Of a DNA stretch of 64,000 bases, positions 5,178 to 53,092 are shown piece by piece (position 1 is the first letter of the stretch; each line of letters opens with the position of its first letter). Origin of the DNA: Thermoanaerobaculia bacterium (GTDB lineage: Bacteria; Acidobacteriota; Thermoanaerobaculia; UBA5066); the NCBI GenBank assembly GCA_963816185.1, contig CAWFJJ010000006.1, positions 1,326-65,325 on the forward strand, written 5' to 3'. The notes under the pieces were generated by a model, which worked only from the letters and a program-made list of their open reading frames with translations, did no database searches and was not told where the DNA came from. The position numbers and the translations under genes were made by a program.

Positions 5178-5969
5178 TCATCCTTTCGGTGCCGTGCCGA
5201 CCTCGAACACCTCTCGCACCTCTCCGAGCGGCGCGCCGCCTTCCCCGAAGCTCCTCTCCGCGAACCGTGCCGTGCCGTCCGTTCCAACGACGAGGGCCGT
5301 CTGGGCACGCGTCCCGTAGCCTGGGAGCAGGACGAACGCCGCAGAGAGAGCCCGCTCCCAATCCGGCGGCAGGCCCGTCGCCGGGAGGTCGCCGTCGGGC
5401 GCAACGGTCCGGTCCGCGAGAAGGTCCAGGAGCCGGCGCTCGAGGTCTTCCGCGCCGTCGGCGGTCTCGAGCGCCGCCTGGACGCGCGAGCGGGCGGTCG
5501 TCACCTTGGGCCACGGCGTTTCGAGGAGGTGATTCGAGAGGCCCCAGACGCCGGGACCGAGGAGCTTGGGGTCTCCCTCCACGTTCGAGAAGGACCATAG
5601 CTCGGCTTCGTCCGAGACGAGGAGGTTGAAACCGTGGTAACGGCCTGCGCCGGCCCGAGCCGCGGCGACATAGTCCGCCGCGGCGGCATCGCCCCGCAGG
5701 AAGTCCGCAACGAGCGCGCCGCGCGAGGGCGCGCCGTCCTTCTTCGGAGCCGACGCGTCCCGGAAGTTCGTGAGCGCGGCGAACCGGCCCCGTCGCGTGA
5801 CTCCCATCCACGTCCCGCCCGCCTCGAGGTCGCGACCCGCGAGAACATCCGGCGCGTCGGCCCACCATGCGGCCGGTGCGGCGTGGCGCGCGAAGAACTC
5901 ATCGCGGTTGGCCGCGACGGCGAGGCGCGTCCTCGGCGACGCCTCCCACGCAAGGACGATCAGGCACAT
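5178..5969 (-). CDS. NRDE family protein (DUF833/TANGO2-like)
   Basis: 263-aa ORF starting MCLIVLAW with the eponymous VAANRDEF motif and GGTWMGV. Confidence 0.85.
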   Translation of the reverse strand: MCLIVLAWEASPRTRLAVAANRDEFFARHAAPAAWWADAPDVLAGRDLEAGGTWMGVTRRGRFAALTNFRDASAPKKDGAPSRGALVADFLRGDAAAADYVAAARAGAGRYHGFNLLVSDEAELWSFSNVEGDPKLLGPGVWGLSNHLLETPWPKVTTARSRVQAALETADGAEDLERRLLDLLADRTVAPDGDLPATGLPPDWERALSAAFVLLPGYGTRAQTALVVGTDGTARFAERSFGEGGAPLGEVREVFEVGTAPKG

Positions 5970-6098: not shown

Positions 6099-7100
6099 GT
6101 GCAGGCTCTCTTTCGGCAGGAAGTATTCCACGCGGGCAGCCGGGTGTTCCGGTGGGAGGACGTCGTCCTGGCGGCGGAGCTGTGGGGCGACTGGAAGCTC
6201 ATCGAAGAGAGGGCGCTTCAGAATCTCGCCGTCCTCGCCTCCGTGGACTCCGGAACCGAATCCGCGGTGCCGGAAGATGAGATCGACAAGGCGGCGGACG
6301 ACTTCCGGTACGAGCGGGATCTCATCACGGCCGAGGAGCTCGAGCGTTGGCTCTCACGCTGGCGCCTCGACGCCGAGACCTGGCTCGGCTGGATTCACGC
6401 CACCCTGCTCCGCGACCGTCTGCCGGGCATCGTCTTTTCAGGCCGGCCGGAAGCAGAGGTTCGTCAGGTCGAGCTGGCCGTCCTCGCCGAGGCCGTCTGC
6501 TCCGGGGAACTGGAGCGTCTCGGTCGGCAGCTCGCCGCCCGCGCCGCGATCGCAGAGCGGGAGAGAGAACGAGAGAAGGTCGCCGACGACGAGGATCGAA
6601 ACTCGGCCGGGTCGCTCGCCGAGCGTCGGGAAGTCCTCGCCCGGCTGGAGCTTTCGTACGAGCGGTTCCGTGAGGAGGTGCTCACTCCGGACGCCCTGGC
6701 TGCGCGGGTCAAGGCGCGCCTTACCGATTGGACCCGAATCAGCTGCAGCGTCCTGAGGCTTTCGGCCGAAGACGCCGCGCGCGAGGCGGCGATGGCGGTG
6801 CGCCAGGAGGGAGTCGACCTCGGAACGCTGGCGGAGGAGATCGGCGAGGCCACGGAAGACGGCGTGGAGTTTCTCGAGGAGGCGGAGCCGGAGGTCCGTG
6901 ACATCCTTCTCTCGGCGAGGCCGGGAGAGCTCGTCGGGCCGGTGAACGTCGGCGACGAGTTCGTGCTCGTCTCTGTCCGCGCGAAGACCCCGCCGGCGCC
7001 CGACGATCCCGAGGTGCTCGAGAGAGCCGAGTCGAGCCTCCTGGAAGGGCTCGTCGCACGCGAGGTCGACAACAGGATCACGTGGACATGGAAGCCGTGA
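6099..7100 (+). CDS. hypothetical accessory protein of the exporter operon (parvulin/SurA-like C-terminal tail?)
   Basis: Downstream part of ORF 5634..7100. The upstream part is antisense to the NRDE gene and is discarded. GTG 6099 has GAGAGG upstream, but the start is uncertain. The C-terminus ARPGELVGPVNVGDEFVLVSVRAK resembles the end of PpiC-type PPIase domains. The 3' end overlaps the exporter start by ~19 nt. Confidence 0.45.
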   Translation: MQALFRQEVFHAGSRVFRWEDVVLAAELWGDWKLIEERALQNLAVLASVDSGTESAVPEDEIDKAADDFRYERDLITAEELERWLSRWRLDAETWLGWIHATLLRDRLPGIVFSGRPEAEVRQVELAVLAEAVCSGELERLGRQLAARAAIAEREREREKVADDEDRNSAGSLAERREVLARLELSYERFREEVLTPDALAARVKARLTDWTRISCSVLRLSAEDAAREAAMAVRQEGVDLGTLAEEIGEATEDGVEFLEEAEPEVRDILLSARPGELVGPVNVGDEFVLVSVRAKTPPAPDDPEVLERAESSLLEGLVAREVDNRITWTWKP

Positions 7101-10100
7101 CGAGCAAGGCGAGCTCGGCCGCCGCATCGGAGATCGAGGCGGCCCGGATCTTCCTCGACGACCTGCCGCTCCTGAAGTTCCTCTCGCCCGCGTCGCGCGC
7201 CGCCGTGACCGCGAAGTTCGTTCCCGTCGCCTTTCCCTTCGGCGCCGTCATTCTCCGCGAGGGCGACCCCGCCGACGCCTTCTTCGTCGTCGTCGCCGGG
7301 AAAGCGCGGGCGGTGAAGACGGGGGAACAGGGCGAGGAGGTTTCGCTTGGCGTACTTCGGCCCGGAGACAGCTTCGGCGAGATGGGTCTTCTGGATCCTT
7401 CAGCAAAGCGGCAGGCCACCGTACGCGCCTCGAGCGCGGCGACGGTCCTCCGGCTCGACCGGAACGCCTTCGACGCGCTTCTTTCCGGTGATCCGGAGAT
7501 CCGGACCTGCCTGGAGCTCCACGTCAGGTACCGGAGCCTCCAGAACCTCTTCCGTCTCTACACTCCTTTTTCCACCCTTCCGCCGTCCGTCCTCGCCGGG
7601 CTCCTCCACCGGTTCGAGACGATCTCCGTCGCCGCCGGTGAGGCCGTCTTTCGACAGGGGGATGGCGAGGGGCCTCTCTTCGTCGTCGAGGAAGGGCGGC
7701 TTCGCGTCTTCACCGAAGACGATGGGCACCGGCGAAACATCGCTTATCTGCGAAAAGGCGACGTCTTCGGAGAGATCTCGGCCTTCACGGGGGAACCGAG
7801 AAAGGCCACGGTCGAGGCTGTCACGCCCTGCCGGCTCCTGAGCCTTCACCCGAGCGCCTTCCGGGCGGTCACGGACGCTCACCCGGAATTTCGCGCGGCC
7901 ATCGGACGACGTATCGCCCAGTACGACTATCGAAAAGAGGCCAGGGTGCCGCTCGACTTCGCCGACGAGCTCCTGCCCGCGGAGGCGCAGGTGGAGGAGG
8001 TGGGACCCGACCAGATCGACGAGGACGCCGATCGTCCGCCGGACGAATCTTCAGCGGAGGGATCCGCCGCTCCCTTCGCGACGGAAGACGGTCGGTTCGT
8101 CAAGGGGCCTCGGCGGATCCGCCGCTTTCGCTTCGTCCGGCAGATCGACGAAATGGACTGCGGCGCGGCCTCCCTCGCGATGGTCTGCCGCCACTTCGGC
8201 CGCGCGGTGAGCCTCGCGCGGATCCGGCAGCTCCTCTTCACGTCGACTGACGGCACCAGCCTCCGGGCGGTCTGCCGCGGTGCGGAGGAGCTGGGGCTCG
8301 CCGCGCGCTCCGTCAAGGCCTCGGCGAGGCACCTGGACCAGATGCCGCTCCCCGCGATCCTGCACTGGGGCGGCAACCACTGGGTCGTCCTTTACGACGT
8401 GAGCCCGACGGAGGCTCGCGTGGCCGACCCGGGGGTCGGGCTCAGGCGCCTTCCCCGCGCGGAGGTCGAGAAGGAGTGGACCGGCTACGCCGCCCTCTTC
8501 GACTACACGGAGGCGTTCGAGAAGGCTCCGGTGGGGCGCTCCAGCTTCGCCTGGCTCACCCGGTTCTTCCGGCCGCACGCGGGCGTCCTCGCGAAGGCGG
8601 CCGGCCTCGCCCTGATCGTCAGCGTCCTGCAGATGGTCCTCCCGGTCTTCAGCCAGGTCATCGTCGACCGGGTTCTCGTCGAGCGCGACGAGGGGCTGCT
8701 CCGGATCCTCCTTTTCGGGATGGGAGGCGTCCTCGTCTTCTCGACTCTCGCGATGGTCCTGCAGCGATATCTCCTGAGCTTCGCCGCGGTCCGGATCGAC
8801 GCCTCGACGCTCGACTTCGTCACGCGGCGCCTCCTGTCGCTTCCGATGTCCTACTTCTCGACGCGGAAGACAGGCGACATCCAGCGCCGCCTCATGGGCC
8901 TCCGGCAGGTGCGAGAGCTCCTCGTCCAGTACGGGGTCTCCTCGCTGACCGCCCTCTCGCAGCTCTCCGCGGTCCTGATCCTGATGTTCGTCTACAGCCC
9001 CCTCCTCGCGGGCGTCTTTCTCGCGACCGTCCCCCTCTACGCCCTTCTCATGCGGTACTCGAGGCGCCGGCTGCGTCCCGTCTTCGACACGCTCGAGGAG
9101 GCGTTCGGAAAGTATTCCGCCCAGCAGATCGACACCATCAAGGGGATCGAGACCGTCAAGTCGCTCGGGGCCGAAGGCTCCCTCCGTCAGCTGATGCTGG
9201 AGAGGTTCCTCGGCCTCGCCCGAAAGCAGTTCCGCGCCGACTTCACGGTCATGACCTACGAAGGCGCCGTCCAGGCCGTGAGCTTCCTCTCGACCGCCCT
9301 CTTCCTCTGGGCGGGGGCCGTCCAGGTGATGCGCGGGTCGCTCACCATCGGCGGGCTCGTCGCGTTCAACACCCTCGTCGCCCTCGCGAACGCCCCGATC
9401 GGGATCCTGCTCGCGACCTGGGACCACCTCCAGTACGGAACGGTTCTCCTCGACCGCCTGAACGACGTCTTCGAGCAGAAGCCCGAGCAGGGCGACGACC
9501 GGTCCCAGCTTCTCCCGGTCCGGACGCTCGCGGGAAAGGTGTCGCTCCGAAACGTCGGCTTCCGATTCGGCGGGCCCGAGTCGCCGTTGATCCTCGACGG
9601 CCTGACGTTCGACGTGGACCCGGGAAAGATGGTGGCGATCGTCGGCCGGAGCGGCTCCGGCAAGACGACCCTCGCCAAGCTCCTCTCCGGCCTCATGGAG
9701 CCGACCGAAGGATCGATTCTTTTCGACGGAGCGGACCTCAAGACGCTGAATTACCGGGACCTCAGGCGCCGCGTCGGCTTCGTCCTCCAGGAGAACTACC
9801 TCTTCGACGAGACGATCGCCCGGAACATCGCCTTCGGCGACGGCGAGCCCGACGTGGACCGGGTCCTTTGGGCCGCCCGGGTCGCGAGCGCCCACGAGTT
9901 CGTCGAGAGGTTTCCGCTCGGCTACGACACCCGGGTCGGCGAGTCGGGCCTCGCCCTCTCCGGCGGGCAGAAGCAGCGCGTCGCCATCGCGCGGGCCGTC
10001 TACAACCGTCCCCCGGTCCTGATCTTCGACGAGGCGACCAGCTCTCTCGACACCGAATCGGAGCGGGCGGTCAAGGAGAACCTCGACCGCCTTCTGGAGG

Positions 10101-10264
10101 GCCGGACGTCGTTCGTGATCGCCCACAGGCTCAGCACCATCCGCGACGCGGACGTCATCCTCGTCCTGGAGAAGGGACGTCTCGTCGAGCACGGGACTCA
10201 CGACGAGCTGATGGACCGCCAGGGGCTCTACTACTACCTGTCGAGCCAGCAGCTCGGGATCTAG
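7082..10264 (+). CDS. peptidase C39 domain-containing ABC exporter with two N-terminal cyclic-nucleotide-binding-like domains
   Basis: 1060-aa ORF. Two CAP/cNMP-type segments (..GDSFGEMGLL.. and ..GDVFGEISAF..). C39 catalytic motifs QIDEMDCGAASLAMV (Cys) and GGNHWVVLYDV (His). ABC membrane domain, Walker A GRSGSGKTT, signature LSGGQKQR, Walker B VLIFDEATS. Confidence 0.9.
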   Translation: MDMEAVTSKASSAAASEIEAARIFLDDLPLLKFLSPASRAAVTAKFVPVAFPFGAVILREGDPADAFFVVVAGKARAVKTGEQGEEVSLGVLRPGDSFGEMGLLDPSAKRQATVRASSAATVLRLDRNAFDALLSGDPEIRTCLELHVRYRSLQNLFRLYTPFSTLPPSVLAGLLHRFETISVAAGEAVFRQGDGEGPLFVVEEGRLRVFTEDDGHRRNIAYLRKGDVFGEISAFTGEPRKATVEAVTPCRLLSLHPSAFRAVTDAHPEFRAAIGRRIAQYDYRKEARVPLDFADELLPAEAQVEEVGPDQIDEDADRPPDESSAEGSAAPFATEDGRFVKGPRRIRRFRFVRQIDEMDCGAASLAMVCRHFGRAVSLARIRQLLFTSTDGTSLRAVCRGAEELGLAARSVKASARHLDQMPLPAILHWGGNHWVVLYDVSPTEARVADPGVGLRRLPRAEVEKEWTGYAALFDYTEAFEKAPVGRSSFAWLTRFFRPHAGVLAKAAGLALIVSVLQMVLPVFSQVIVDRVLVERDEGLLRILLFGMGGVLVFSTLAMVLQRYLLSFAAVRIDASTLDFVTRRLLSLPMSYFSTRKTGDIQRRLMGLRQVRELLVQYGVSSLTALSQLSAVLILMFVYSPLLAGVFLATVPLYALLMRYSRRRLRPVFDTLEEAFGKYSAQQIDTIKGIETVKSLGAEGSLRQLMLERFLGLARKQFRADFTVMTYEGAVQAVSFLSTALFLWAGAVQVMRGSLTIGGLVAFNTLVALANAPIGILLATWDHLQYGTVLLDRLNDVFEQKPEQGDDRSQLLPVRTLAGKVSLRNVGFRFGGPESPLILDGLTFDVDPGKMVAIVGRSGSGKTTLAKLLSGLMEPTEGSILFDGADLKTLNYRDLRRRVGFVLQENYLFDETIARNIAFGDGEPDVDRVLWAARVASAHEFVERFPLGYDTRVGESGLALSGGQKQRVAIARAVYNRPPVLIFDEATSSLDTESERAVKENLDRLLEGRTSFVIAHRLSTIRDADVILVLEKGRLVEHGTHDELMDRQGLYYYLSSQQLGI

Positions 10265-11466
10265 ATGGACGAGGCGCCGTTCCTCCCGAGCGACCCGCCG
10301 CCCTTCGCGGCCCGGAGCCTCGCATGGCTCCTGATCGCCCTCTTCGCAGTGGCCGCTGTCGTATCGGTGGCGGTCAAGGTTCCCGAAACGGTCGTCGCCC
10401 CGTTCGCCCTTGTGCCCATGCGCGGCACCGATCCGGTTCGCGCTCCGCACGGAGGCACGGTCACGGAGGCTCTTGCCGTCGAGGGGCGCCCCGTGGCCAA
10501 GGGCGCGAGGCTCTTTGCCATCCGGTCGCAGGAGTTCGGGGACAGGGCCTCCGAGCGGAAGGCGCTCGAAGCAGGCCTCGGCGGACTTGCCGAGAGCCTT
10601 TCCAACGCCCGGAAGAGATTCGACAGCGAGGCCGGCGAGAGGCGTGAGGAGGCCCGGAGTCTCGCCGATCGCGCGGCCTATCTCGATCGGATGCTGGCTT
10701 TGAAGAGGGAGCAGCTCGCCTTGACGCTGGAGCAGTCCGAGCGGGCGAAGAAGCTCGCCGACCAGGGGCTCGCGAGCTTCAACGACCGTTCCGACGCCCA
10801 GATCCGGCACAGCCAGACCGTCATGGAGCTCGAGCAGCTCCAGTCCGACCGGAGCGCGACCGGGAGCGCCATCGAGAAGCTTCGCGACACCGAAGCGGCG
10901 AAGGGGACCGAGTTCCACGAGGAGGAGCGGGTCCTCGAGGAGAAGATCGCTCAGGCGAGAATCAGGATCGGCGCGCTCAGCGGGGGGCGCCCTCCGCCGG
11001 CGGAGACGAATCTGGAAACGAGCTGGCCGTCACTTCTCCGTGCGACGGCACCGTTCTCGGCGTCACGGCGCGGCGGGCCGGGGCGGTGGTCCGCGAAGGC
11101 GACGTCCTCGCCGAGGTCGCCTGCTCCGCCGAGACCCTGCAGGCCGAGCTGAGCCTCCCGCAGGGAGGGCTCTCCCGGATCCACCCCGGCCAGAGCGTCC
11201 GCCTCCTCCTCGACGCGTTCCCGTACCAGCGCTACGGCGTCCGCGGGGGAAGGGTCCGGTGGGCCAGCCCCTCCGGGGTCGGGACCCGCGAGGCCGCGAC
11301 CTTCCCCGTCCTCGTCGACCTGGACGAGCAGGCCGTCCCGGCGGACGGCGAGCGCAAGCCGCTCCTGGCGGGAATGCGCGGCACCGCGCGCGTCGTCGTC
11401 GGCCGCCGCACGCTCGTCGAGTACGCCTTCGAGCCTCTCCGGCAGCTTCGGGAGAACCTCCGGTGA
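10265..11466 (+). CDS. HlyD-family membrane-fusion/adaptor protein, reading frame interrupted once
   Basis: The ATG abuts the exporter stop (TAGATG). The N-terminal ~240 codons (TM helix LAWLLIALFAVAAVV, long coiled coil) are in one frame. The C-terminal barrel part (NELAVTSPCDGTVLGVTARRAGAVVREGDVLAEV...GMRGTARVVVGRRTLVEY) is in another. The two join only if the run GGGGGG at 10982-10987 gains or loses one G. Confidence 0.75.
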
Positions 11467-11532: not shown

Positions 11533-12438
11533 ATGCGCCGCTGCCTCGACGTGGCGCGTGCCGCCTGCCGGACCGAGCTTCCGCTCCTCCTCCTCGGCGA
11601 GTCGGGGACCGGAAAGACGCTCCTCGCCCAGGCGATCCACAACTCCTCTCCGAGAGCGTCGGCTCCCTTCGTCTCCTTCAACGCCGCGGCCCTCTCCGAC
11701 ACGCTCCTCGACAGCCAGCTCTTCGGCCACGAGAAAGGGGCGTTCACGGACGCCAAGCAGCCGCTGCGCGGCAAGTTCGAGGTCGCCGACGGCGGGACCC
11801 TCTTCATCGACGAGATCGCCGACATGAGCCCGCTCGCCCAGGCGAAGATCCTCCGGGCGGTCGAATACGGAGAGTTCGAGAGGCTCGGATCCGAGCGGCT
11901 CCGCAAGGCGGACGTCCGCCTGATCTCGGCCACCCGCCACCCGCTGGAGCGGTTTGCGAACACCGAGCAGTTCCGGAGCGATCTCTTCTACAGGCTCGCG
12001 GGGCTCACCGTCACCCTTCCCCCGCTGCGCGAGCGGCCGAACGACCTGCGCGAGCTCGTCGCGGCCTCGATCCATCGCGCCGCTCACGCACAGGGACGGA
12101 CCATCTCCGGTCTCTCCCAGAAGGCCGCCGATGCCCTTTTCTCGTATCACTGGCCCGGGAATCTCCGGGAGCTCGACCTCGTCATCCACGCCGCAGTCGC
12201 GATGACCGAGGGCTCGGTGATCGAGGAATTTGCGATCCTGGTCCGAAACAACGGCGGGCCCGGGACGTCCCCTTCCGCCGCGCGGCCGGTCCCTGCGGCC
12301 GACCTGAGCCTCCGGGCCGTCGAGCGAGACCACATTCACCGGGTCCTCCGGGAGCTCGGGGGGAACAAGACGAGGGCCGCCAGGACCCTCGGCATCTCGC
12401 GCTCCCGCCTCGAGAGGAAGCTCAACGACGCGAAGTGA
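11533..12438 (+). CDS. sigma-54-dependent transcriptional activator (bEBP) lacking an N-terminal sensory domain
   Basis: 301-aa ORF. AAA+ core GESGTGKT, GAFTDA (GAFTGA variant), LFIDEIADM, WPGNLRELD. C-terminal Fis-type HTH NKTRAARTLGISRSRLERKL. Only ~22 in-frame codons separate the HlyD stop from the first ATG, so there is no room for a receiver, GAF or PAS module. Confidence 0.85.
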   Translation: MRRCLDVARAACRTELPLLLLGESGTGKTLLAQAIHNSSPRASAPFVSFNAAALSDTLLDSQLFGHEKGAFTDAKQPLRGKFEVADGGTLFIDEIADMSPLAQAKILRAVEYGEFERLGSERLRKADVRLISATRHPLERFANTEQFRSDLFYRLAGLTVTLPPLRERPNDLRELVAASIHRAAHAQGRTISGLSQKAADALFSYHWPGNLRELDLVIHAAVAMTEGSVIEEFAILVRNNGGPGTSPSAARPVPAADLSLRAVERDHIHRVLRELGGNKTRAARTLGISRSRLERKLNDAK

Positions 12439-12573: not shown

Positions 12574-12589
12574 TGGAACGGTCCTTGCT
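12574..12589 (+). promoter_or_regulatory. sigma-54 (-24/-12) promoter heading the peptide-gene array
   Basis: TGGAAC-GGTCC-TTGCT. GG (12575-76) and GC (12587-88) have the canonical 12-nt register of TGGCAC-N5-TTGC. Located 135 nt downstream of the bEBP stop and 42 nt upstream of the first leader-type RBS and start. Confidence 0.6.
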
Positions 12590-12630
12590 CCGCCCGGGCC
12601 CGGTCCCGAATTCGAGAAAGGAGAAACGAC

Positions 12631-12772
12631 GTGAACCACGAAGAAAACCCCCTCGGGCTTCTACAAGAAGGCGGTGAAGGACCTCGACGTCAAGCCCGCC
12701 AAGGTGACGTCCGCCCGGGCGTCCAGTCTCGAACCGGCCGTCAGCGACCGCGAAGAAGGCGAAGAACCGATC
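12631..12772 (+). pseudogene. decayed copy of the Lys-rich leader peptide gene
   Basis: Preceded by the family RBS (GAAAGGAGAAACGAC-GTG). The nucleotide sequence aligns to the leader consensus only with several small indels. The motif KDLDVKPAK is readable only in a shifted frame and both GG motifs are lost. Confidence 0.5.
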
Positions 12773-12913
12773 ATGAAGAAGACCCCGAAGAAAAGCGCCC
12801 GGACAAGCTTCTCAAAGAAGACGCGGTCAAGGACCTCGCACCAAGCTCCGCCAAGGGCAGGCGGCACGAGGCGGCACGGGAAGGTCTGTGACAGGGGTGG
12901 ATCGAGCATCTGA
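12773..12913 (+). pseudogene. divergent or decayed leader-peptide gene copy (46-codon ORF still open)
   Basis: MKKTPKKSARTSFSKKTRSRTSHQAPPRAGGTRRHGKVCDRGGSSI. The N-terminus (MKKTPKK) and C-terminus (..RGG-SSI) match the family, but the central AVKDLxxKPAKGG block is encoded out of frame (DAVKDLAPSSAKG in another frame). Confidence 0.4.
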
Positions 12914-12968: not shown

Positions 12969-13190
12969 ATGAAGACGGGCCGCCGCAAGACGAAGCCGTC
13001 GCCGGGGTTCGTCCCCCTCAGGGACCTCGTCCCCCGAAACGACCCCAAGGGCGGGTCGGCCGGGAAGACGGTATTCGGTGAACGTCCCCCGATCGCTCGA
13101 GACAGAAGAAAAGCACCCCTTCAAGGATGTTCCGGCCGAACGAAGGCAGAAGCCGGGTCACGACCGAAACAGGAAGAAAGGAGAAACGCC
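12969..13190 (+). repeat. R-element copy 1 (Arg-rich ORF MKTGRRKTKPSPGFVPLRDLVPRNDPKGGSAGKTVFGERPP.., fused in frame to precursor A by a 1-nt difference)
   Basis: ~225-nt element shared with 5 other copies. It ends in the conserved box CCGGCCGAACGAAGGCAGAAGCCGGGTCACGACCGAAACAGGAAGAAAGGAGAAACG plus the start codon of the next gene. Confidence 0.7.
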
Positions 13191-13376
13191 ATGAAGAAGA
13201 CCACGAAGAAAAGCTCCTCGAAGGCCTCTCACAAGAGAGCCCGCAAAAACCTCGACGTCACGCCTGCCAAGGGCGGGACCGTCCGGGGAGGCGGCAAGGC
13301 GGGCTCGGGCAGGACTACTGTCAGCGACCTCCAGATCAGCAAAGTTGTCGACAAGAGTTCAGCCGTGCTGTTCTGA
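13191..13376 (+). CDS. precursor peptide A: MKKTTKKSSSKASHKRARKNLDVTPAKGGTVRGG / GKAGSGRTTVSDLQISKVVDKSSAVLF
   Basis: ATG preceded by AAAGGAGAAACGCC. 61 codons. Family leader plus a 27-residue C-terminal part. Confidence 0.8.
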   Translation: MKKTTKKSSSKASHKRARKNLDVTPAKGGTVRGGGKAGSGRTTVSDLQISKVVDKSSAVLF

Positions 13377-13399: not shown

Positions 13400-14542
13400 A
13401 TGGTACGGCTTCCGACGATCCCGGACACTCCCGCCAAAGGCCCGGCTCCGCTCCATGCACGCTGGCTCGAAGAGGCCCTCGGGGGAAAGATCCCCTCCGA
13501 GCCCCACGCCACGTGCGAGAGCTGCCCCATGCTCCCTGTGCCCGGCGGCGCGGACGGGGCCCGGGACGCGGTCTTCTTCAATCCCAAGACGAAGTGCTGC
13601 ACCTACCTGCCGAGGCTTCACAACTTTCTCGTCGGCGCGATCCTGGCAGACGAGGCGCCCGACATGGCCGAAGGGCAGGCGCGCGTTCTCGAGAGGATCG
13701 GAAAAAGGGTCGGCGTGACGCCGCTTTGGGTCGGCGCCGGTGGAGCGTACAGCCTCATGTACGACCACGGTGACGGGGTCTTCGGCCACAGCGAGGCGAT
13801 GCGCTGCCCCTACTACCTCGAGGATCGGATCGGCGGCGGCTGCGGGATATGGCGTCACCGCAATTCCATCTGCATGACCTGGTTCTGCAAGCACGAGCGC
13901 GGGGCCCGGGCGCTGCGGTTCTGGGACTCGGCCAAAGAGCTGCTGATGGCCGTCGAGGAGAACCTCGCGATCCACTGCCTCGTCACCCTCGGTTTCGACG
14001 ACGCGGCGCTCCGGACCAATTTCCCGTTCAAGGTTCCGAAGTCTCAGCGGACGGAAACCGTGAAGGGGGACGAGCTCGACGGCACGGTGAGCCCCGAGAG
14101 GTACAAGGCCCTCTGGGGAAGCTGGGCTGGCCGCGAGAAGGAGCTCTACCTCCTAAGCGACGGGATCGTCCGGAACATGGAGTGGAAGGACGTCGAGCGA
14201 ATCGGCGGCGCGAACGTCGCTCTCCTCTCGCAGCTCGCACGCGCTGCCTACCAGACGGCAGCCAGCGACGCTCTTCCGGAGCGCCTCGAAATCGGCAACC
14301 TCAACGTCATCGGCGCCGGGCGTAAGACCGTGCGCCTCGGCACCTACAGCCCATACGACCCCATCGATGCTCCTGCCGCGCTTCTTCCGGCATTGCCCGC
14401 CTTCGACGGCTCCAGGGTACCCGACGCCCTCCGCGCGATCGAGAAGGATCATGGGCTCGTCCTGAGCCCCGAGCTCGTCCGAAAGCTCGTCGACTACGGC
14501 CTGCTCCGCGCGGTGACCGCCCCCGAAGACGAGCGAGTCTAA
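13400..14542 (+). CDS. Cys-rich protein, paralogue 1 (YkgJ/FliB-like CxxC...CC metal-cluster motifs); candidate peptide-tailoring enzyme
   Basis: 380 codons from ATG 13400 within ORF 13127..14542, 23 nt after precursor A. Conserved Cys pattern C-ESC...KCCTYLPRL...MRCPYYLEDRIGGGCGIWRHRNSICMTWFCKHE. The CPYYLEDRxxxxC...RxxxC block resembles the PF03692 (CxxCxxCC / flagellin lysine-N-methylase FliB) family as I remember it. Confidence 0.7.
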   Translation: MVRLPTIPDTPAKGPAPLHARWLEEALGGKIPSEPHATCESCPMLPVPGGADGARDAVFFNPKTKCCTYLPRLHNFLVGAILADEAPDMAEGQARVLERIGKRVGVTPLWVGAGGAYSLMYDHGDGVFGHSEAMRCPYYLEDRIGGGCGIWRHRNSICMTWFCKHERGARALRFWDSAKELLMAVEENLAIHCLVTLGFDDAALRTNFPFKVPKSQRTETVKGDELDGTVSPERYKALWGSWAGREKELYLLSDGIVRNMEWKDVERIGGANVALLSQLARAAYQTAASDALPERLEIGNLNVIGAGRKTVRLGTYSPYDPIDAPAALLPALPAFDGSRVPDALRAIEKDHGLVLSPELVRKLVDYGLLRAVTAPEDERV

Positions 14543-14605: not shown

Positions 14606-14737
14606 GTGAAGAAGACCACGAAGAAAAGCCCCTCGAAGGCATCTCACAAGAAGGCGGTCAAGAACCTCGAGCTCAAAACGGTTAAGAGCGGGACGGTCCG
14701 AGGAGGAGTACCCGCGGTCCAAAAGTCAGGGAGATAG
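14606..14737 (+). CDS. precursor peptide B: MKKTTKKSPSKASHKKAVKNLELKTVKSGTVRGG / VPAVQKSGR
   Basis: GTG start 6 nt after AAAGGAGAAACGAC. 43 codons. TAG stop at 14735. Confidence 0.8.
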   Translation: MKKTTKKSPSKASHKKAVKNLELKTVKSGTVRGGVPAVQKSGR

Positions 14738-14747
14738 GAGGAGCAAC

Positions 14748-14885
14748 ATGAAAAAGATCGCGAAGAAGGGCGCCCCGAAGGCCTCTCACAAGAAATCGGT
14801 CAAGGACCTCGAGATCAAGCCCGCCAAGGGCGGGACGGGCGAGACGGTCCGTGGCGGCAAGATGATCGACAAGATCCACATCTGA
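14748..14885 (+). CDS. precursor peptide C: MKKIAKKGAPKASHKKSVKDLEIKPAKGGTGETVRGG / KMIDKIHI
   Basis: ATG after GGAGGAGCAAC. 45 codons. Leader carries the 3-residue insert GET. Confidence 0.8.
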   Translation: MKKIAKKGAPKASHKKSVKDLEIKPAKGGTGETVRGGKMIDKIHI

Positions 14886-14921: not shown

Positions 14922-15145
14922 ATGATGAAGACAGGCCGCCGAGGACCAAGCCGTCGCCGGGGGTTCGTCCTCCTCAGAGATCTCATCCCTCGAAACGACC
15001 CCAAAGGCGGGTCGGCCGGGAAAACGGTATTCGGTGAACGTCCCACGGTCCTCGAGACAGAAGAAAAGCACCCCCATGAGGATGTTCCGGCCGAACGAAG
15101 GCAGACGCCGGGTCACGGCCGAAACAGGAGGAAAGGAGACACGAT
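14922..15145 (+). repeat. R-element copy 2 (intact 75-codon ORF 14922..15149: MMKTGRRGPSRRRGFVLLRDLIPRNDPKGGSAGKTVFGERPTVLETEEKH...)
   Basis: Same element as 12969, 15772, 16505, 18386 and 18945. The ORF stop overlaps the precursor D start (ATGA). Confidence 0.7.
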
Positions 15146-15286
15146 ATGAAGAAGACCACGAAGAAGACCCCGAAGGCCTCGCACAAGAAGGCGGTCAGGA
15201 ACCTCGACGTCAAGCCCGCGAAGGGTGGAACGGTCCGTGGCGGAATACATGGTGGCTGGGACCAGCTCGCGAACAAGAAAGTTTGA
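15146..15286 (+). CDS. precursor peptide D: MKKTTKKTPKASHKKAVRNLDVKPAKGGTVRGG / IHGGWDQLANKKV
   Basis: ATG after AAAGGAGACACGAT. 46 codons. Confidence 0.8.
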   Translation: MKKTTKKTPKASHKKAVRNLDVKPAKGGTVRGGIHGGWDQLANKKV

Positions 15287-15373: not shown

Positions 15374-15520
15374 ATGAACAACCCCAAGAAGAAGAGCGCC
15401 TCGAAGGCCTCCCACAAGAGGAAGGTGAAGGACCTCGAGATCAAGCCCGCCAAAGGAGGGACCGTCCGTGGAGGCAAGGTCTTTCCCAAGGTGACCACGG
15501 GTTTGCTCGACAAGTACTAG
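15374..15520 (+). CDS. precursor peptide E: MNNPKKKSASKASHKRKVKDLEIKPAKGGTVRGG / KVFPKVTTGLLDKY
   Basis: ATG after GTAAGGAGAAGACGTC. 48 codons. Confidence 0.8.
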   Translation: MNNPKKKSASKASHKRKVKDLEIKPAKGGTVRGGKVFPKVTTGLLDKY

Positions 15521-15596: not shown

Positions 15597-15734
15597 ATGA
15601 AGAAGAACGCGAAGAAGAACCCTCCGAAGGGTTCCCGAAAGAACGCAATCAAGGACCTCGAGATCAAGCCCGCCAAGGGCGGGACGGACGGGACGGTCCG
15701 TGGCGGCAAGTTCGAGACCAAGATCCACATCTGA
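15597..15734 (+). CDS. precursor peptide F: MKKNAKKNPPKGSRKNAIKDLEIKPAKGGTDGTVRGG / KFETKIHI
   Basis: ATG after AGAAGGGAGACACGAC. 45 codons. Leader insert DGT. Confidence 0.8.
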   Translation: MKKNAKKNPPKGSRKNAIKDLEIKPAKGGTDGTVRGGKFETKIHI

Positions 15735-15771: not shown

Positions 15772-15996
15772 ATGATGAAGACAGTCCGCCGAGGACCAAG
15801 CCTTCGCCAGGGATTCGTTCCCCTCAGGGACCTCGTGCCCTGAAACGACCCCAAGGGGGGGTCCGCTGGGAAGACGGTATTCGGCGAACGTCCCCCGGTT
15901 TCCGTGACAGAAATGACACAGCGCTTCCAGGATGTTCCGGCCGCACGAAGGCAGAAGCCGGGTCACGGTCGAAACAGTAAGTAAGGAGAAGACGTC
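15772..15996 (+). repeat. R-element copy 3 (ORF interrupted by TGA at 15841: MMKTVRRGPSLRQGFVPLRDLVP*)
   Basis: Nucleotide-level homologue of the other R copies, but with an in-frame stop inside the otherwise conserved PRNDPKGG block. Confidence 0.65.
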
Positions 15997-16128
15997 ATGA
16001 ACAACCCCAAGAAGAAGAGCGCCTCGAAGGCTTCCCACAAGAAGACGGTCAAGAACCTCGAGGTCACGCCCGTCAAGGGCGGGAAGGTCCGTGGGGGCTT
16101 CCCGACGCCATGGAAAAACAAGGTCTAA
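15997..16128 (+). CDS. precursor peptide G: MNNPKKKSASKASHKKTVKNLEVTPVKGGKVRGG / FPTPWKNKV
   Basis: ATG after GTAAGGAGAAGACGTC. 43 codons. Confidence 0.8.
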   Translation: MNNPKKKSASKASHKKTVKNLEVTPVKGGKVRGGFPTPWKNKV

Positions 16129-16174: not shown

Positions 16175-16306
16175 ATGAAAAAGACCTCGAAGAAGAGCGC
16201 CTCGAAGGCATCTCACAAGAAGGCGGTCAAGGACCTCGAGGTCAAGCACGCCAAGAGCGGGACGGTTCGCGGAGGACTGCCCCCCGGTCCACCAACCTAC
16301 AAATGA
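16175..16306 (+). CDS. precursor peptide H: MKKTSKKSASKASHKKAVKDLEVKHAKSGTVRGG / LPPGPPTYK
   Basis: ATG after GAAAGGAGAAACGAAC. 43 codons (3' part of ORF 16091..16306). Confidence 0.8.
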   Translation: MKKTSKKSASKASHKKAVKDLEVKHAKSGTVRGGLPPGPPTYK

Positions 16307-16327: not shown

Positions 16328-16453
16328 ATGAAGAAGACCACGAAGAAAGACCCTTCGAAGGCCTCTAAGAAGAAGGCGGTCAAAAACCTCGAGGTCAAGC
16401 CCGCGAGGGGTGGAACGGTCCGCGGAGGCTGGGACCCGACCAAAGCGCGATAG
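16328..16453 (+). CDS. precursor peptide I: MKKTTKKDPSKASKKKAVKNLEVKPARGGTVRGG / WDPTKAR
   Basis: 41 codons. No obvious SD. An in-frame ATG at 16316 would add MRTD. Starts 22 nt after precursor H. Confidence 0.7.
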   Translation: MKKTTKKDPSKASKKKAVKNLEVKPARGGTVRGGWDPTKAR

Positions 16454-16504: not shown

Positions 16505-16725
16505 ATGAAGACAGGCCGCGGTAAGACAAAGCCCTCGCCGGGGTTCGTCCCCCTCAGGGACCTCATCCCCCGAAACGATCCCAAGGGCGGGTCGGCCGGG
16601 AAGACGGTATTCGGCGAGCGTCCCCCGGTCCTCGAGGCAGAAGAAAAGCACCCCTTCAAGGATGTTCCGGCCGAACGAAGGCAAAAGCCGGGTCACGACC
16701 GAAACAGGAAGAGAGGAGAGACGAC
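16505..16725 (+). repeat. R-element copy 4 (ORF 16493/16505..16729: MKTGRGKTKPSPGFVPLRDLIPRNDPKGGSAGKTVFGERPPVLEAEEKH...)
   Basis: Belongs with copy 1 to a subclass that differs from copies 2, 5 and 6 by a compensated pair of 1-nt indels near the 5' end. Preceded by two TCGAAACGA boxes (16456, 16470). Confidence 0.7.
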
Positions 16726-16914
16726 ATGAAGAAGAACACGAAGAAGACAGCCTCCAAGGCAAAGGGGCCCAAGGCGACGAAGAATCTCGACGTCAAGCCC
16801 GCCAAGGGCGCGAAGGTCCGTGGTGGAACTGTAAACAAGGGGTGGATCGAAGTTTCATCCTTCAGTTTTAATGCGGAACCCACCGTCAGTGTGACCGCGA
16901 AGAAGCCGTCCTGA
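16726..16914 (+). CDS. precursor peptide J: MKKNTKKTASKAKGPKATKNLDVKPAKGAKVRGG / TVNKGWIEVSSFSFNAEPTVSVTAKKPS
   Basis: 62-aa ORF in the track. RBS GAGAGGAGAGACGAC. Stop overlaps the GT41 start (TGATG). Confidence 0.8.
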   Translation: MKKNTKKTASKAKGPKATKNLDVKPAKGAKVRGGTVNKGWIEVSSFSFNAEPTVSVTAKKPS

Positions 16915-18386
16915 TGAGCACCGGCTGGCCGAAGGGCTGCCGCATGCTCGCGGCGGGCAAGTATGCGAGCGGCCTCGCGGCCTTCGAACCGGCCGTCCGG
17001 GCGAGTCCGGACTCTGCGGCCGCACGATTCCACCTCGCCCGGGCGAGCTTCGCCCTAGGGGAGGTCGAGAGGGCGACCCGGCAGCTTCGGGCGGCACTCC
17101 GGATCCGCACGGATATCCGAGCTCTGCGGTTCCTGGCCACGATCGCCCCGTTCGACCCGCGCCTCGACCACGCGGCGATCCTGAAGGTCCGCCGCGCGCT
17201 GGCCGCTGCGGTTCGCGCTCGAACCGTCGCGCCCGCCAGGGCGATCGTCGTCGGGAGCCCGGCCAGGAAAGTGCTCAAGGTTGGCTACGTCTCGTCTTTC
17301 TTCGACAAGGACAACTGGATGAAGCCGGTGTGGGGGCTGATCGATCACCACGACGCCAAGAGGGTGGAGATCCACCTTTTTGCCGACGTGCCGCGCGTTT
17401 CTGCGGTGCGTCGGCGGGCGCGTGCGAGCGCGGCGCACGTCCACGACATCTCGCGCCTTGACAACGATGTGGCCGCGCGGCTGATCGCCCGGACGGGGCT
17501 CGACGTCCTCGTGGATCTCAATCAGTACAGCCGGGTCGGCCGGATGCCGCTTTTTTCGACCAGGCTGGCGCCGGTCGTCGTCGCGTGGTTCAACATCTTC
17601 GGGACCTCGGGAATGCCGGTTTTCGACGCGCTGATCGGCGATCGATGGCTCGTCCGCGACGTCGAGAAGCCTTGGTACCTCGAAAAGATCGTGAAACTCC
17701 CGTTCTCGTCGCTGACTTTCGCGGTGGACTATCCGGTCCCTGACGTCGGGCCGCCGCCTTTCTTGCGCAACGGCTTCGTCACGTTCGGAAGTCTTTCGTC
17801 GCTGTACAAGCTCAACGACGGCGTCGTCGGCACCTGGGCCGACATTCTGAAGCGGAGCCCGGGAAGCCGTCTTCTCCTGGGCAATGCGGATCTGGGAGAC
17901 CCCGGCAACCGAGCGCACACTCTCGAGCGATTCACCGCGCGCGGGATCGAGCCCGCGCGCGTCACGTTGCTCGGGCCCGACGAGCACTACGAGTTTCTCC
18001 GAAACTACGACGCGATTGACCTCGCTCTCGACACGTTCCCCTACAACGGAGGCACGACGACCACCGAGGCGATCTGGCAAGGAGTCCCGGTCGTCGCGTT
18101 CTTGGGGGACCGGTGGATCTCGCGTACCAGCGCCTCCCTGCTGGAAAACGCCGGTCTTGAGGGCTTCGTCAGCCGGGACGTCCGCGGTTATGTCGAAACG
18201 GCCGTCCGGTGGGGGTCGGGAGCAAAGGCGGAAGAACGGAGAGAGCTCCGCCGCACGATGAGGAAACGCCTGAAAGCCTCACCCGTCACCGACTGCGCGA
18301 GCCTCGCGCGCTGCATCGAGGACGCTTACGTCCAATTGTGGGGCGCGAGGACTCGCTCCGCTCTCCCTCAGCGGATGACAGCGTGA
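16914..18386 (+). CDS. TPR-containing GT41-family glycosyltransferase (OGT/SPINDLY-like)
   Basis: 490-aa ORF. N-terminal TPR-like helices. C-terminal block VTFGSLSSLYKLND...LLLG...IDLALDTFPYNGGTTTTEAIWQGVPVVAF matches the GT41 catalytic-domain signature (DTFPYxGxTTxxxALWxGVPVV). Confidence 0.85.
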   Translation: MSTGWPKGCRMLAAGKYASGLAAFEPAVRASPDSAAARFHLARASFALGEVERATRQLRAALRIRTDIRALRFLATIAPFDPRLDHAAILKVRRALAAAVRARTVAPARAIVVGSPARKVLKVGYVSSFFDKDNWMKPVWGLIDHHDAKRVEIHLFADVPRVSAVRRRARASAAHVHDISRLDNDVAARLIARTGLDVLVDLNQYSRVGRMPLFSTRLAPVVVAWFNIFGTSGMPVFDALIGDRWLVRDVEKPWYLEKIVKLPFSSLTFAVDYPVPDVGPPPFLRNGFVTFGSLSSLYKLNDGVVGTWADILKRSPGSRLLLGNADLGDPGNRAHTLERFTARGIEPARVTLLGPDEHYEFLRNYDAIDLALDTFPYNGGTTTTEAIWQGVPVVAFLGDRWISRTSASLLENAGLEGFVSRDVRGYVETAVRWGSGAKAEERRELRRTMRKRLKASPVTDCASLARCIEDAYVQLWGARTRSALPQRMTA

Positions 18387-18606
18387 TGAAGACAGGCCGT
18401 CGAGGACCAAGCCGTCGCCGCGGGTTCGTCCTCCTCAGAGATCTCGTCCCCCGAAACGATCCCAAGGGCGGATCGGCCGGGAAGACGGTATTCAGCGAGC
18501 GTCCCCCGGTCCTCGAGACAGAAGATAAGCATCACCTTAAAGATGTTCCGGCCGAACGAAGGCAAAAGCCGGGTCACGACCGAAACAGGAAGAAAGGAGA
18601 AACGAC
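18386..18606 (+). repeat. R-element copy 5 (ORF 18386..18610: MKTGRRGPSRRRGFVLLRDLVPRNDPKGGSAGKTVFSERPPVLETEDKHHLKD...)
   Basis: The ATG overlaps the GT41 stop (TGATG). The stop overlaps the precursor K start (GTGA). Confidence 0.7.
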
Positions 18607-18741
18607 GTGAAGAAGATCACGAAGAAAGGTCCCTCGAAGGCCCCCAAGAAGAGGACGACGAAGAATCTCGACGTCAAGCCCGCCAAGGGCGGGACGATCC
18701 GCGGGGGGAGCCTCCCCCGACAGTGGAAGTGGATCGAGTGA
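18607..18741 (+). CDS. precursor peptide K: MKKITKKGPSKAPKKRTTKNLDVKPAKGGTIRGG / SLPRQWKWIE
   Basis: GTG after AAAGGAGAAACGAC. 44 codons. Confidence 0.8.
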   Translation: MKKITKKGPSKAPKKRTTKNLDVKPAKGGTIRGGSLPRQWKWIE

Positions 18742-18776: not shown

Positions 18777-18908
18777 ATGAAAAAGACCACGAAGAAGAAC
18801 CCTCCGAAGGTGTATCGAAAGAAGGCAATCAAGGACCTCGAGATCAAGCCCGCCAAGGGCGGGACGGGCGAGACAGTCCGTGGCGGCAAGGATAAGATCC
18901 ACATCTGA
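18777..18908 (+). CDS. precursor peptide L: MKKTTKKNPPKVYRKKAIKDLEIKPAKGGTGETVRGG / KDKIHI
   Basis: ATG after GAAAGGAGAAACGCC. 43 codons. Leader insert GET as in precursor C. Confidence 0.8.
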   Translation: MKKTTKKNPPKVYRKKAIKDLEIKPAKGGTGETVRGGKDKIHI

Positions 18909-18944: not shown

Positions 18945-19168
18945 ATGATGAAGACAGGCCGCCGAGGACCAAGCCGTCGCCGGGGGTTCGTCCTCCTCAG
19001 AGATCTCGTCCCCCGAAACGATCCCAAGGGCGGGTCGGCCGGGAAGACGGTATTCGGCGAGCGTCCCCCGGTCCTCGAGACAGAAGATAAGCATCACCTT
19101 AGAGATGTTCCGGCCGAACGAAGGCAGAAGCCGGGTCACGACCGAAACAGGAAGAGAGGAGAAACGAC
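18945..19168 (+). repeat. R-element copy 6 (ORF 18945..19172: MMKTGRRGPSRRRGFVLLRDLVPRNDPKGGSAGKTVFGERPPVLETEDKHHLRD...)
   Basis: Near-identical to copies 2 and 5. Most differences from them fall on third codon positions of this frame (manual comparison). Confidence 0.7.
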
Positions 19169-19312
19169 GTGAAGAAGATCACGAAGAAAGGTCCCTCGAA
19201 GGCTTCCAAGAAGAGGACGACGAAGAATCTCGACGTCAAGCCCGCCAAGGGCGCGACGGTTCGTGGCGGAGTGCATGGCGGTTGGGACCAGATCGCGAAC
19301 AAGAAGATTTGA
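19169..19312 (+). CDS. precursor peptide M: MKKITKKGPSKASKKRTTKNLDVKPAKGATVRGG / VHGGWDQIANKKI
   Basis: GTG after AGAGGAGAAACGAC. 47 codons. Confidence 0.8.
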   Translation: MKKITKKGPSKASKKRTTKNLDVKPAKGATVRGGVHGGWDQIANKKI

Positions 19313-19393: not shown

Positions 19394-19537
19394 ATGAAGA
19401 AGAACACGAAGAAGACAGCCTCCAAGGCAAAGGGGCCCAAGGCGACGAAGAACCTAGAGGTCAAACCCGCCAAGGGGGCGTCGGTCCGTGGCGGAGTGCA
19501 TGGTGGCTGGGACCAGGTCGGGAACAAGAAGTATTAG
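19394..19537 (+). CDS. precursor peptide N: MKKNTKKTASKAKGPKATKNLEVKPAKGASVRGG / VHGGWDQVGNKKY
   Basis: ATG after AGAGAGGAGACACGAC. 47 codons. The stop abuts the Cys-rich paralogue 2 ORF. Confidence 0.8.
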   Translation: MKKNTKKTASKAKGPKATKNLEVKPAKGASVRGGVHGGWDQVGNKKY

Positions 19538-20782: not shown

Positions 20783-20910
20783 AGAAGATCACGAAGAAAG
20801 GTTCCTCAAAGGCTTCCAAGAAGAAGGCGGTCAGGAACCTCGACGTCAAGCCTGCGAAGGGCGGGACGGTCCGTGGAGGGGCAACCAGACTCGACAAGTG
20901 GCCCGGGTAG
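20779..20910 (+). CDS. precursor peptide O: MKKITKKGSSKASKKKAVRNLDVKPAKGGTVRGG / ATRLDKWPG
   Basis: ATG after GAAAGGAGAAACGAC. 43 codons. Confidence 0.8.
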   Translation: MKKITKKGSSKASKKKAVRNLDVKPAKGGTVRGGATRLDKWPG

Positions 20911-53004: not shown

Positions 53005-53092
53005 TTCACTGGAAGAAGGTAGATCTCCGGAAAGCCGAACTCCCGCGGGAATAGAATCGCAGCCGCTCTTCGTCTCCGGAGGTTTCACGCCG

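Follow-up and report, generated by a model that had tools for sequence, protein, structure and literature searches.

A 64,000-nucleotide stretch of DNA from a Thermoanaerobaculia bacterium (GenBank assembly GCA_963816185.1, contig CAWFJJ010000006.1, positions 1,326 to 65,325; here called the window) carries on its forward strand an open reading frame (ORF) of 1,060 codons without the stop, at positions 7082 to 10264. This ORF, the exporter gene of the present analysis, was taken to be a real gene on the basis of its GC content of 0.70, 0.45, and 0.89 at the first, second, and third codon positions, in a window of ~67% GC; third-position GC was also used to tell real genes from shadow ORFs around it. 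Translation may start at GTG 7082 or at ATG 7088, both of which are kept in relatives with 86 to 87% identity. The product is a peptidase-containing ATP-binding cassette transporter (PCAT) preceded by two cyclic nucleotide-binding (CNB) domains, and in this it resembles HetC (alr2817) of Nostoc/Anabaena PCC 7120, an exporter with cyclic nucleotide (cNMP)-binding, C39, and ATP-binding cassette (ABC) domains on which heterocyst differentiation depends (Rachedi et al. 2024, PMC10986499).

Domain organization of the exporter

An earlier note, made from the letters of this DNA, had described two cyclic nucleotide-binding modules ahead of a C39 peptidase domain and had proposed searches with four Pfam profiles. 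All four scored far above their gathering thresholds: PF00027 (cNMP_binding) in two stretches (E 3e-46, 155.7 bits against a cut-off of 27.5), PF03412 (Peptidase_C39, residues 349 to 474, E 1e-32), PF00664 (ABC_membrane, residues 509 to 770, E 8e-43), and PF00005 (ABC_tran, residues 838 to 987, E 6e-36). The hallmark motifs of the two modules, FGEMGLL and FGEISAF, lie at residues 98 and 229, and those of the peptidase, QIDEMDCGAAS (with C360) and GGNHWVV (with H433), at residues 354 and 430. The ATPase carries a Walker A motif (GRSGSGKT, 855), a signature motif (LSGGQ, 959), a Walker B motif (LIFDE, with E984), and an H-loop (IAHRL, 1013).

Sequence features that define a PCAT were found, namely, the Cys, His, and Asp of C39 together with the oxyanion Gln, a type I membrane domain, and the ATPase motifs, and the feature that defines the HetC type, PF00027 domains N-terminal of C39 in one polypeptide, was found with them. 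Residues 351 to 1060 match PCAT1 (4ry2, E 4e-115), HlyB, and ComA (8hf4, E 4e-102) end to end, so the exporter is a whole PCAT plus ~345 extra N-terminal residues. It scored below the NCBIfam cut-offs of both TIGR03796 (NHLP/Nif11 bacteriocin exporter; 527 against 853.3) and TIGR01193 (a peptide cleavage and export subfamily; 396 against 523.85).

The catalytic site of the peptidase domain is complete, with Q354, C360, H433, and D449 in place, in agreement with the earlier note. Conservation was assessed in 242 family members, each at least 440 residues long, which were drawn from two database searches and some of which are only ~30% identical to the query; the Gln, Cys, His, and Asp of C39 are kept in 94 to 98% of them.

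The tandem CNB domains and the acidic linker

For residues 20 to 280, the best matches by both sequence and fold were the tandem CNB domains of cGMP-dependent protein kinase (PKG) and of the regulatory subunits of protein kinase A (PKA-R). In an alignment to solved structures, the phosphate-binding cassette FGEMGLLDPSAKRQATVRA of the first domain (CNB-A) matches FGEIALLMNRPRAATVVA of PKA RI-alpha, and the cassette FGEISAFTGEPRKATVEA of the second (CNB-B) matches FGELALIYGTPRAATVKA, residue for residue. The earlier note had singled out the Glu and Arg of this cassette as the residues whose loss would speak against it, and both domains have the pair. In CNB-A it is E100 and R110, which align with E324 and R333 of PKA RI-alpha, and in CNB-B it is E231 and R240, which align with E200 and R209.

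An AlphaFold2 model of residues 1 to 480, built from an alignment of 30 sequences, had a mean predicted local distance difference test (pLDDT) score of 82, with ~90 for both CNB beta-rolls, each of which is followed by helices, and a confident C39 fold at residues 350 to 474. A Foldseek search against the PDB ranked the CNB tandems of cGMP-bound PKG I-beta and cAMP-bound PKA-R highest (probability 1.00). Between the tandem and C39 lies the acidic linker that had been noticed before, at residues 285 to 338; 17 of its 54 residues are Asp or Glu and 4 are Lys or Arg, and its pLDDT is below 50. Within it, P290, D292, E296, and P299 (VPLDF..E.LPAE) are invariant among 30 relatives.

In CNB domains, the cassette Glu contacts the ribose 2'-OH and the Arg contacts the cyclic phosphate, and the pair is a signature of ribose-cyclic-phosphate binding. 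Among the 242 relatives, the Glu and Arg are present in 92 and 87%, respectively, for CNB-A and in 93 and 92% for CNB-B, and FGE...PR.A(S/T) signatures were seen in both domains of the distant representatives that were inspected directly. Conservation of 87 to 93% argues that the CNB tandem binds a phosphate-containing ligand. The sensor layer is conserved and, as judged from these alignments, under selection.

Distribution of the exporter family

To establish how widespread the design is, residues 1 to 480 were used as a query against one genome per species, and a relative of this full region was found to be encoded in at least 556 species genomes. Among the matches listed, the closest were metagenome-assembled genomes (MAGs) of Thermoanaerobaculia and Acidobacteria (86 to 87% identity); others came from Holophagales, Blastocatellia, Vicinamibacterales, Gemmatimonadota, Methylomirabilota/Rokubacteria, Binatota, Verrucomicrobiota, Myxococcota, and Actinomycetota. 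In a word-indexed protein search, the best 120 matches all carried PF00027 and PF03412, and several were named by NCBI as "cyclic nucleotide-binding domain-containing protein." An exhaustive search of cluster representatives (50% identity) returned 423 clusters at an E value of 1e-30 or lower, many of them of 1,010 to 1,075 amino acids, aligned over residues 20 to 480 of the query. The cNMP-C39-ABC design is common in soil bacteria. The novelty that the earlier note had implied for a PCAT with a sensor did not hold, given this distribution, the names already in use at NCBI, and the published work on HetC.

A conserved cassette around the exporter

Eighty related loci were fetched for counts of neighboring genes. 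A gene for a PpiC-like protein lies directly upstream of the exporter gene in 78 of the 80, a gene for an HlyD-family adaptor is found in ~60, a sigma-54 activator without a sensory domain follows the HlyD gene in 38, and a cysteine-rich protein is encoded in 13. Together with a sigma-54-type promoter, the PpiC-like protein, exporter, adaptor, and activator form a cassette that recurs across phyla, and all of its parts are found in the window (Table 1). The full arrangement, candidate substrates included, is seen again in Acidobacteriota, Gemmatimonadota, Methylomirabilota, Binatota, Verrucomicrobiota, Myxococcota, and Actinomycetota.

The ORF of the PpiC-like protein is open from position 5634, and the part kept in relatives sets in near GTG 6099, which leaves the start of the gene uncertain; its stop overlaps the start of the exporter gene. 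The match of the protein to Pfam Rotamase_2 (E 1.4e-5) is slightly below the cut-off. Its best NCBIfam match is TIGR04500, a "putative peptide maturation system protein," and a score of 28 to 30 bits against a cut-off of 180 makes it a distant relative rather than a member of that family, with which it has in common the C-terminal PpiC-type rotamase-like region.

The HlyD gene is a single ORF of ~400 amino acids in the two loci L001 and L002, which are 86 to 87% identical to that of the window. In a DNA alignment with these loci, the copy in the window lacks 1 nucleotide in a run of G at positions 10982 to 10987, which splits it into pieces at 10265 to ~10985 and ~10981 to 11466. Either the gene is a true pseudogene, or the assembly is in error at this homopolymer.

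The activator consists of an AAA+ domain with a GAFTDA loop and a Fis-type helix-turn-helix (HTH) only, and so, like PspF, has neither a sensory nor a receiver domain. The promoter-like site TGGAACGGTCCTTGCT that follows the activator gene is the sole match in the window at one mismatch or fewer (it has one), with 0.34 expected by chance. A site of this type with at most two mismatches was found 110 to 145 nucleotides past the activator gene in 12 of 33 loci, compared with 24 of 720 random windows. A strict regular-expression scan gave no match in the peptide region described below, and a scan that tolerated three mismatches gave a count equal to chance; thus, the informative evidence for sigma-54 is confined to the site at 12574 and the conservation of its position.

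On the opposite strand, directly upstream of the cassette, lies a TANGO2-family gene (5178 to 5969), and genes for prolyl oligopeptidases (S9) lie 1 kb upstream of the cassette (2884 to 5133, minus strand) and at 42290 to 44437 (plus strand). Neither the S9 nor the TANGO2 genes were associated with the cassette among the 80 related loci.

An array of genes for double-glycine leader peptides

Past the activator gene lies a 9-kb stretch with a strongly positive AT skew that is dense with small ORFs. Between 12.9 and 20.9 kb, on the strand of the exporter gene, it holds genes for peptides with double-glycine (GG) leaders, of which 15 are intact copies of one type (type B) and six are copies of another (type A). 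Type-B peptides are 41 to 62 residues long and have the leader pattern MKKTTKKS.SKASHKKAVKNLEVKPAKGGTVRGG, followed by a short, highly variable core. Type-A peptides follow the pattern MKTGRRGPSRRRGFVLLRDLVPRNDPKGG/SAGKTVFGERPP..., with the junction of leader and core (here and below, a slash) at ..LRDLVPRNDPKGG/SAGKTVFGERP... The leaders are strongly basic, with 10 to 12 Lys or Arg residues, and end in (V/I)(R/K)GG, (V/I)RGG, or PKGG; an invariant (V/I)RGG always stands equally far from the start.

Differences between copies at the first, second, and third codon positions numbered 18, 0, and 84 for type A and 144, 106, and 304 for type B, and this bias to the third position indicates that both types are coding. 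By the same count, the type-A family is under purifying selection. In several cases the type-A stop overlaps the ATG of the next peptide gene as ATGA. The type-A gene family corresponds to a ~230-nucleotide repeat that is better conserved than the adjoining peptide genes. A riboswitch or leader RNA was also considered for this repeat and was rejected, as there was no Rfam match at an E value of 1 or lower, RNAalifold found only three covarying pairs, and the differences between copies have the coding pattern just given.

The peptides matched no curated precursor family of Pfam or NCBIfam, and a leader hidden Markov model (HMM) built from 15 peptides of the window was too specific, finding no match in the 80 related loci in four iterations. 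A loose pattern scan of these loci identified 98 basic leaders of the form ...DL...(V/I)(K/R)GG in 37 loci from several phyla, mostly just past the activator gene and with 83 of the 98 on the strand of the exporter gene; the set has some false positives, among them an HlyD fragment in L068 and spurious Arg-rich ORFs. The type-A motif LKDLAPR.DVKGG/.GK..FGE was present in nine loci from several phyla. On these grounds, the type-A and type-B peptides are likely substrates of the exporter.

Two genes for paralogous cysteine-rich proteins lie among the peptide genes; the proteins had no match in Pfam, NCBIfam, or the PDB and might serve as enzymes of modification or confer immunity. The gene for a GT41 glycosyltransferase begins where a peptide gene ends, at its stop codon, and among the related loci was found only in L002, the closest relative, likewise past the activator gene. 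The enzyme could glycosylate the peptides, and its membership of the system is uncertain.

Several of the predicted cores resemble single beta-strand segments of Hcp, the tube protein of type VI secretion systems (T6SS). Two gave matches to Pfam T6SS_HCP below its cut-off of 23.5, namely, ...TTVSDLQISKVVDKSSAVLF (E 1.1e-3, 19.7 bits) and ITKLVDKSSAVLFQKCATGEHFGK (E 3.3e-4, 21.4 bits). Cores of this kind are encoded in the window at 13191 to 13376, 15146 to 15286, 16726 to 16914, 19169 to 19312, and 19394 to 19537 and in relatives in L011 (16320 to 16538 and 17085 to 17270), L007 (16001 to 16463), and L004 (15179 to 15382). No T6SS gene was found within the window, and no literature was found on Hcp together with double-glycine peptides. 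The sequences KGWIEVSSFSF, GGWDQ.ANKK, and AYDAFLKIEG, compared by eye with Hcp motifs, look Hcp-like as well.

Table 1. Coordinates of the exporter gene, its domains, and the adjoining features in the window
Feature	Position	Strand	Basis
PpiC-type rotamase-like protein	6099..7100	+	Rotamase_2, TIGR04500 (weak), conserved position
cNMP-cNMP-C39-ABC exporter (HetC-type PCAT), 1060 aa	7082..10264	+	Pfam, NCBIfam, motifs
CNB-A, residues 45-136; cassette FGEMGLLDPSAKRQATVRA, E100 and R110	7214..7489	+	Pfam (best stretch 50-135), alignment, AlphaFold
CNB-B, residues 178-266; cassette FGEISAFTGEPRKATVEA, E231 and R240	7613..7879	+	Pfam, alignment, AlphaFold, Foldseek
Acidic, predicted-disordered linker, residues 285-338; VPLDF..E.LPAE motif	7934..8095	+	Composition, pLDDT
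C39 peptidase domain, residues 349-474; Q354, C360, H433, D449	8126..8503	+	Pfam, E 1e-32
Membrane (residues 509-770) and nucleotide-binding domains of the ABC exporter	8606..10261	+	Pfam, motifs
HlyD-family membrane-fusion adaptor, split by -1 frameshift	10265..11466	+	NCBIfam and Pfam HlyD on both pieces
Sigma-54-dependent activator (bacterial enhancer-binding protein)	11533..12438	+	Sigma54_activat PF00158, E 3e-58, from residue 1; HTH_8, E 2e-11
Sigma-54-type promoter-like site TGGAACGGTCCTTGCT	12574..12589	+	136 nt past activator stop
Degenerate frameshifted type-B copies (two)	12629..12913	+	Repeat family D4 copy at 12635, three-frame translation
Type-A copy 1, MKTGRRKTKPSPGFVPLRDLVPRNDPKGG/SAGKTVFGERP..., frame continues into next peptide	12969..13190	+	
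Type-B, ...KNLDVTPAKGGTVRGG/GKAGSGRTTVSDLQISKVVDKSSAVLF	13191..13376	+	Core sub-threshold T6SS_HCP, E 1.1e-3
Cysteine-rich protein copy 1, about 380-410 aa, start approximate	13400..14542	+	Repeat family D6
Type-B, core VPAVQKSGR	14606..14737	+	
Type-B, core KMIDKIHI	14748..14885	+	
Type-A copy 2, stop overlaps next ATG (ATGA)	14925..15149	+	
Type-B, core IHGGWDQLANKKV	15146..15286	+	
Type-B, core KVFPKVTTGLLDKY	15374..15520	+	
Type-B, core KFETKIHI	15597..15734	+	
Type-A copy 3, in-frame TGA, likely pseudogene	15775..15999	+	
Type-B, core FPTPWKNKV	15997..16128	+	
Type-B, core LPPGPPTYK	16175..16306	+	
Type-B, core WDPTKAR	16328..16453	+	
Type-A copy 4	16505..16729	+	
Type-B, core TVNKGWIEVSSFSFNAEPTVSVTAKKPS	16726..16914	+	
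TPR and GT41 (OGT/SPY-like) glycosyltransferase	16914..18386	+	Glyco_transf_41, E 4e-35, and TPR (Pfam)
Type-A copy 5	18386..18610	+	
Type-B, core SLPRQWKWIE	18607..18741	+	
Type-B, core KDKIHI	18777..18908	+	
Type-A copy 6	18948..19172	+	
Type-B, core VHGGWDQIANKKI	19169..19312	+	
Type-B, core VHGGWDQVGNKKY	19394..19537	+	
Cysteine-rich protein copy 2, paralogue of 13400..14542	19538..20782	+	
Type-B, core ATRLDKWPG	20779..20910	+	

Other genes in the window

Signaling proteins are abundant in the remainder of the window, with four encoded at 32479 to 35214, 37729 to 40425, 52937 to 55663, and 56606 to 60664. One has the domain order PAS-GAF-PAS-GGDEF-EAL, and three are Ser/Thr kinases, of which two carry PD40 beta-propeller repeats and one carries an AAA_16 (STAND-like) domain. 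An ORF on the minus strand (60987 to 61925) matches part of the Pfam Lipoxygenase profile (positions 291 to 486 of 673, E 1e-33); lipoxygenases are uncommon in bacteria.

Proposed working of the system and alternative explanations

We think it probable that a conserved cassette for peptide secretion has its export engine in this HetC-type PCAT, with its CNB tandem like that of PKA-R and PKG, and that the PCAT is gated by a nucleotide. The sensor-less activator would drive the sigma-54 promoter in front of the array of about 20 small genes, whose products have very basic leaders with (V/I)(R/K)GG at the end. By analogy with PCAT1, ComA, and CvaB, the C39 domain would bind the leader and cleave after GG, ATP hydrolysis would carry the short core across the inner membrane, and the HlyD adaptor, with an outer membrane channel encoded elsewhere, would take it out of the cell. 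The CNB tandem would sense a phosphate-bearing nucleotide in the cytoplasm, either cAMP or cGMP or a guanine nucleotide such as guanosine tetraphosphate (ppGpp), and the bound ligand, if PKA, PKG, and HetC are a guide, would allosterically permit or block substrate access or the ATPase cycle. Secretion might thereby follow the second-messenger or nutritional state of the cell. That these peptides are cleaved, how and in which direction gating works, and which ligand is bound are points that we infer.

Several observations weigh against this reading. With its HlyD gene frameshifted, this genome may have an inactive system, unless the frameshift is an assembly error. The residue after the cassette Arg, expected to be a small Ala, Ser, or Thr and found as Ala or Thr in PKA and PKG, is Gln111 in CNB-A and Lys241 in CNB-B. 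In the 242 relatives it is mostly Asn, Thr, or Ser in CNB-A and Ala, Thr, or Ser in CNB-B, so that Gln and Lys appear to be an unusual trait of this exporter, in which the main-chain contact could persist. With a predicted template modeling (pTM) score of 0.47, the AlphaFold model does not reliably place the CNB tandem relative to C39, and the geometry of gating cannot be derived from it. Only 2 of the 80 loci of the exporter's clade have a class III cyclase within 10 kb. The window holds no class III cyclase or phosphodiesterase of cyclic nucleotides, and only the unrelated PAS-GAF-GGDEF-EAL protein, 22 kb away, was found. HetC does not respond to cAMP and binds ppGpp only weakly.

The last of these points bear on the most serious alternative, which we consider unlikely though worth attention, that the CNB tandem binds a linear guanine nucleotide (ppGpp, GTP, or GDP) and ties export to the stringent response or nutrition, as has been proposed for HetC. 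The N-terminal fragment of HetC was stabilized by GDP, GTP, and ppGpp, with rises in melting temperature of 2.3, 4.8, and 5.9 degrees C, respectively, and not by cAMP, cCMP, c-di-GMP, or 2-oxoglutarate (PMC10986499), and a cyclase linked to the cassette is missing from 78 of the 80 loci. However, the dissociation constant for ppGpp by isothermal titration calorimetry was 59 uM, which is weak, and the authors left the physiological meaning of the binding open; cGMP, which the preference of HetC for guanine would fit as well, is absent from the list of ligands tested (PMC10986499). The conserved Glu and Arg of the cassettes are, moreover, those of a site for ribose cyclic phosphates. A distant relative also speaks for a cyclic ligand: the cNMP-PCAT P0183 (locus L082, contig logan:SRR27977616_36302, 7759 to 17430), with the HetC-like residues C347, H420, and E969, is clustered with genes for HlyD, a Crp-family regulator, a rotamase, a class II cNMP phosphodiesterase (PDEase_II), and a class III cyclase (Guanylate_cyc). 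Next to this cluster lies a gene for a classical GG precursor, MAKIKIEDLPILESLTNEEVKEIFGG/..., with TTQLPGSG repeats. "Nucleotide-gated" is thus the best-supported statement for the exporter; between a cNMP and ppGpp, we lean to a cNMP for this clade.

It is improbable that the CNB domains act independently of any ligand, as a structural, dimerization, or substrate-docking module, with control exerted only at transcription through the sigma-54 activator. PF00027 domains that bind no cyclic nucleotide are frequent in bacteria, the cassette has a dedicated transcriptional activator of its own, and the acidic linker could hold leaders with 10 to 12 Lys or Arg residues, but conservation of both Glu/Arg pairs at ~90%, down to ~30% identity, is difficult to account for unless a phosphate ligand is bound, and HetC does bind nucleotides. 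That the small ORFs downstream are not substrates, or not genes, and that the exporter serves an unlinked substrate, as is assumed for HetC, is highly improbable: the lack of a curated precursor family, the blank search with the leader HMM, and leaders that are unusually basic and without the classical LS..EL..I.GG stand against the third-position bias, the invariant (V/I)RGG at its fixed distance, the ATGA overlaps, the analogous leaders at the same position in 37 loci, and the type-A motif conserved across phyla.

A wider view of the nucleotide-gated cassette is doubtful at present, namely, that it represents an undescribed, multi-phylum secretion system gated by a second messenger, in which activator-driven arrays would feed a PCAT truly gated by cAMP or cGMP, the type-A core, conserved throughout the family with its GK..FGE motif, would be the signal of the system itself, and some of the variable, Hcp-like cores would act on neighboring cells. 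If it were true, the exporter's clade would supply natural substrates beside a cNMP-PCAT, which the HetC field lacks.

Comparison with known systems

A search of the literature on C39 with cyclic nucleotides, or on double-glycine peptides with sigma-54, found nothing relevant beyond the HetC paper, and in a paper on polymorphic toxins (PMC3482391), PrsW peptidases are the only proteins for which cNMP fusions are mentioned. None of ten family representatives of ~1,024 to 1,045 amino acids was named HetC.

PCAT1 of Clostridium thermocellum, ComA, and CvaB-type exporters have the same Gln/Cys/His/Asp site and take substrates with GG leaders. As the earlier note had stated, these classical exporters are without such a control layer, for they lack the N-terminal sensor region of ~345 residues that is present here. 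Their leaders are amphipathic and acidic (LS..EL..I.GG), in contrast to the strongly basic leaders of the window. The CNB tandem has its closest counterpart in PKA-R and PKG, where A and B domains are likewise joined by helices and have the cassette pattern FGE...R.AT in common with those of the exporter; there the tandem regulates a kinase, whereas here it is fused to a transporter.

The principle of a PCAT with a sensor is not new, being already in the literature for HetC, to which the exporter was likened by published residue positions and domain order rather than by sequence alignment. Both proteins have the order cNMP_binding, C39, membrane domain, and ATPase, with a cytoplasmic N terminus, and they are of similar length (1,044 amino acids for HetC and 1,060 here). 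C347, H420, and E970 of HetC correspond to C360, H433, and E984, with 73 residues from Cys to His in both and 623 and 624, respectively, from Cys to Glu. The N-terminal fragment of HetC has cysteine protease activity, and heterocyst formation in vivo depends on each of C347/H420, E970, and the cNMP region, the last of these removed by deletion of codons 2 to 278 (PMC10986499). The two differ in that one cNMP domain is described for HetC (residues 60 to 146) and two score in the exporter, and in that HetC is cyanobacterial, while the window is closest, among the matches listed, to MAGs of Thermoanaerobaculia (Acidobacteriota). They differ also in their surroundings, since no adaptor or GG-leader gene lies near hetC (PMC10986499), and here both adjoin the exporter gene, along with the sigma-54 activator and the PpiC-like gene.

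A sensor on a peptidase-containing exporter would place the secretion of signaling or antimicrobial peptides under posttranslational control at the transporter itself. What the window adds to the case of HetC is that about twenty peptides, likely substrates to judge by their leaders, adjoin the exporter. With pockets that look canonical and with adaptor, sigma-54 regulator, and about 20 candidate substrates side by side, it offers a more tractable example than HetC, in which the questions of ligand and substrate that HetC has raised can be tested.

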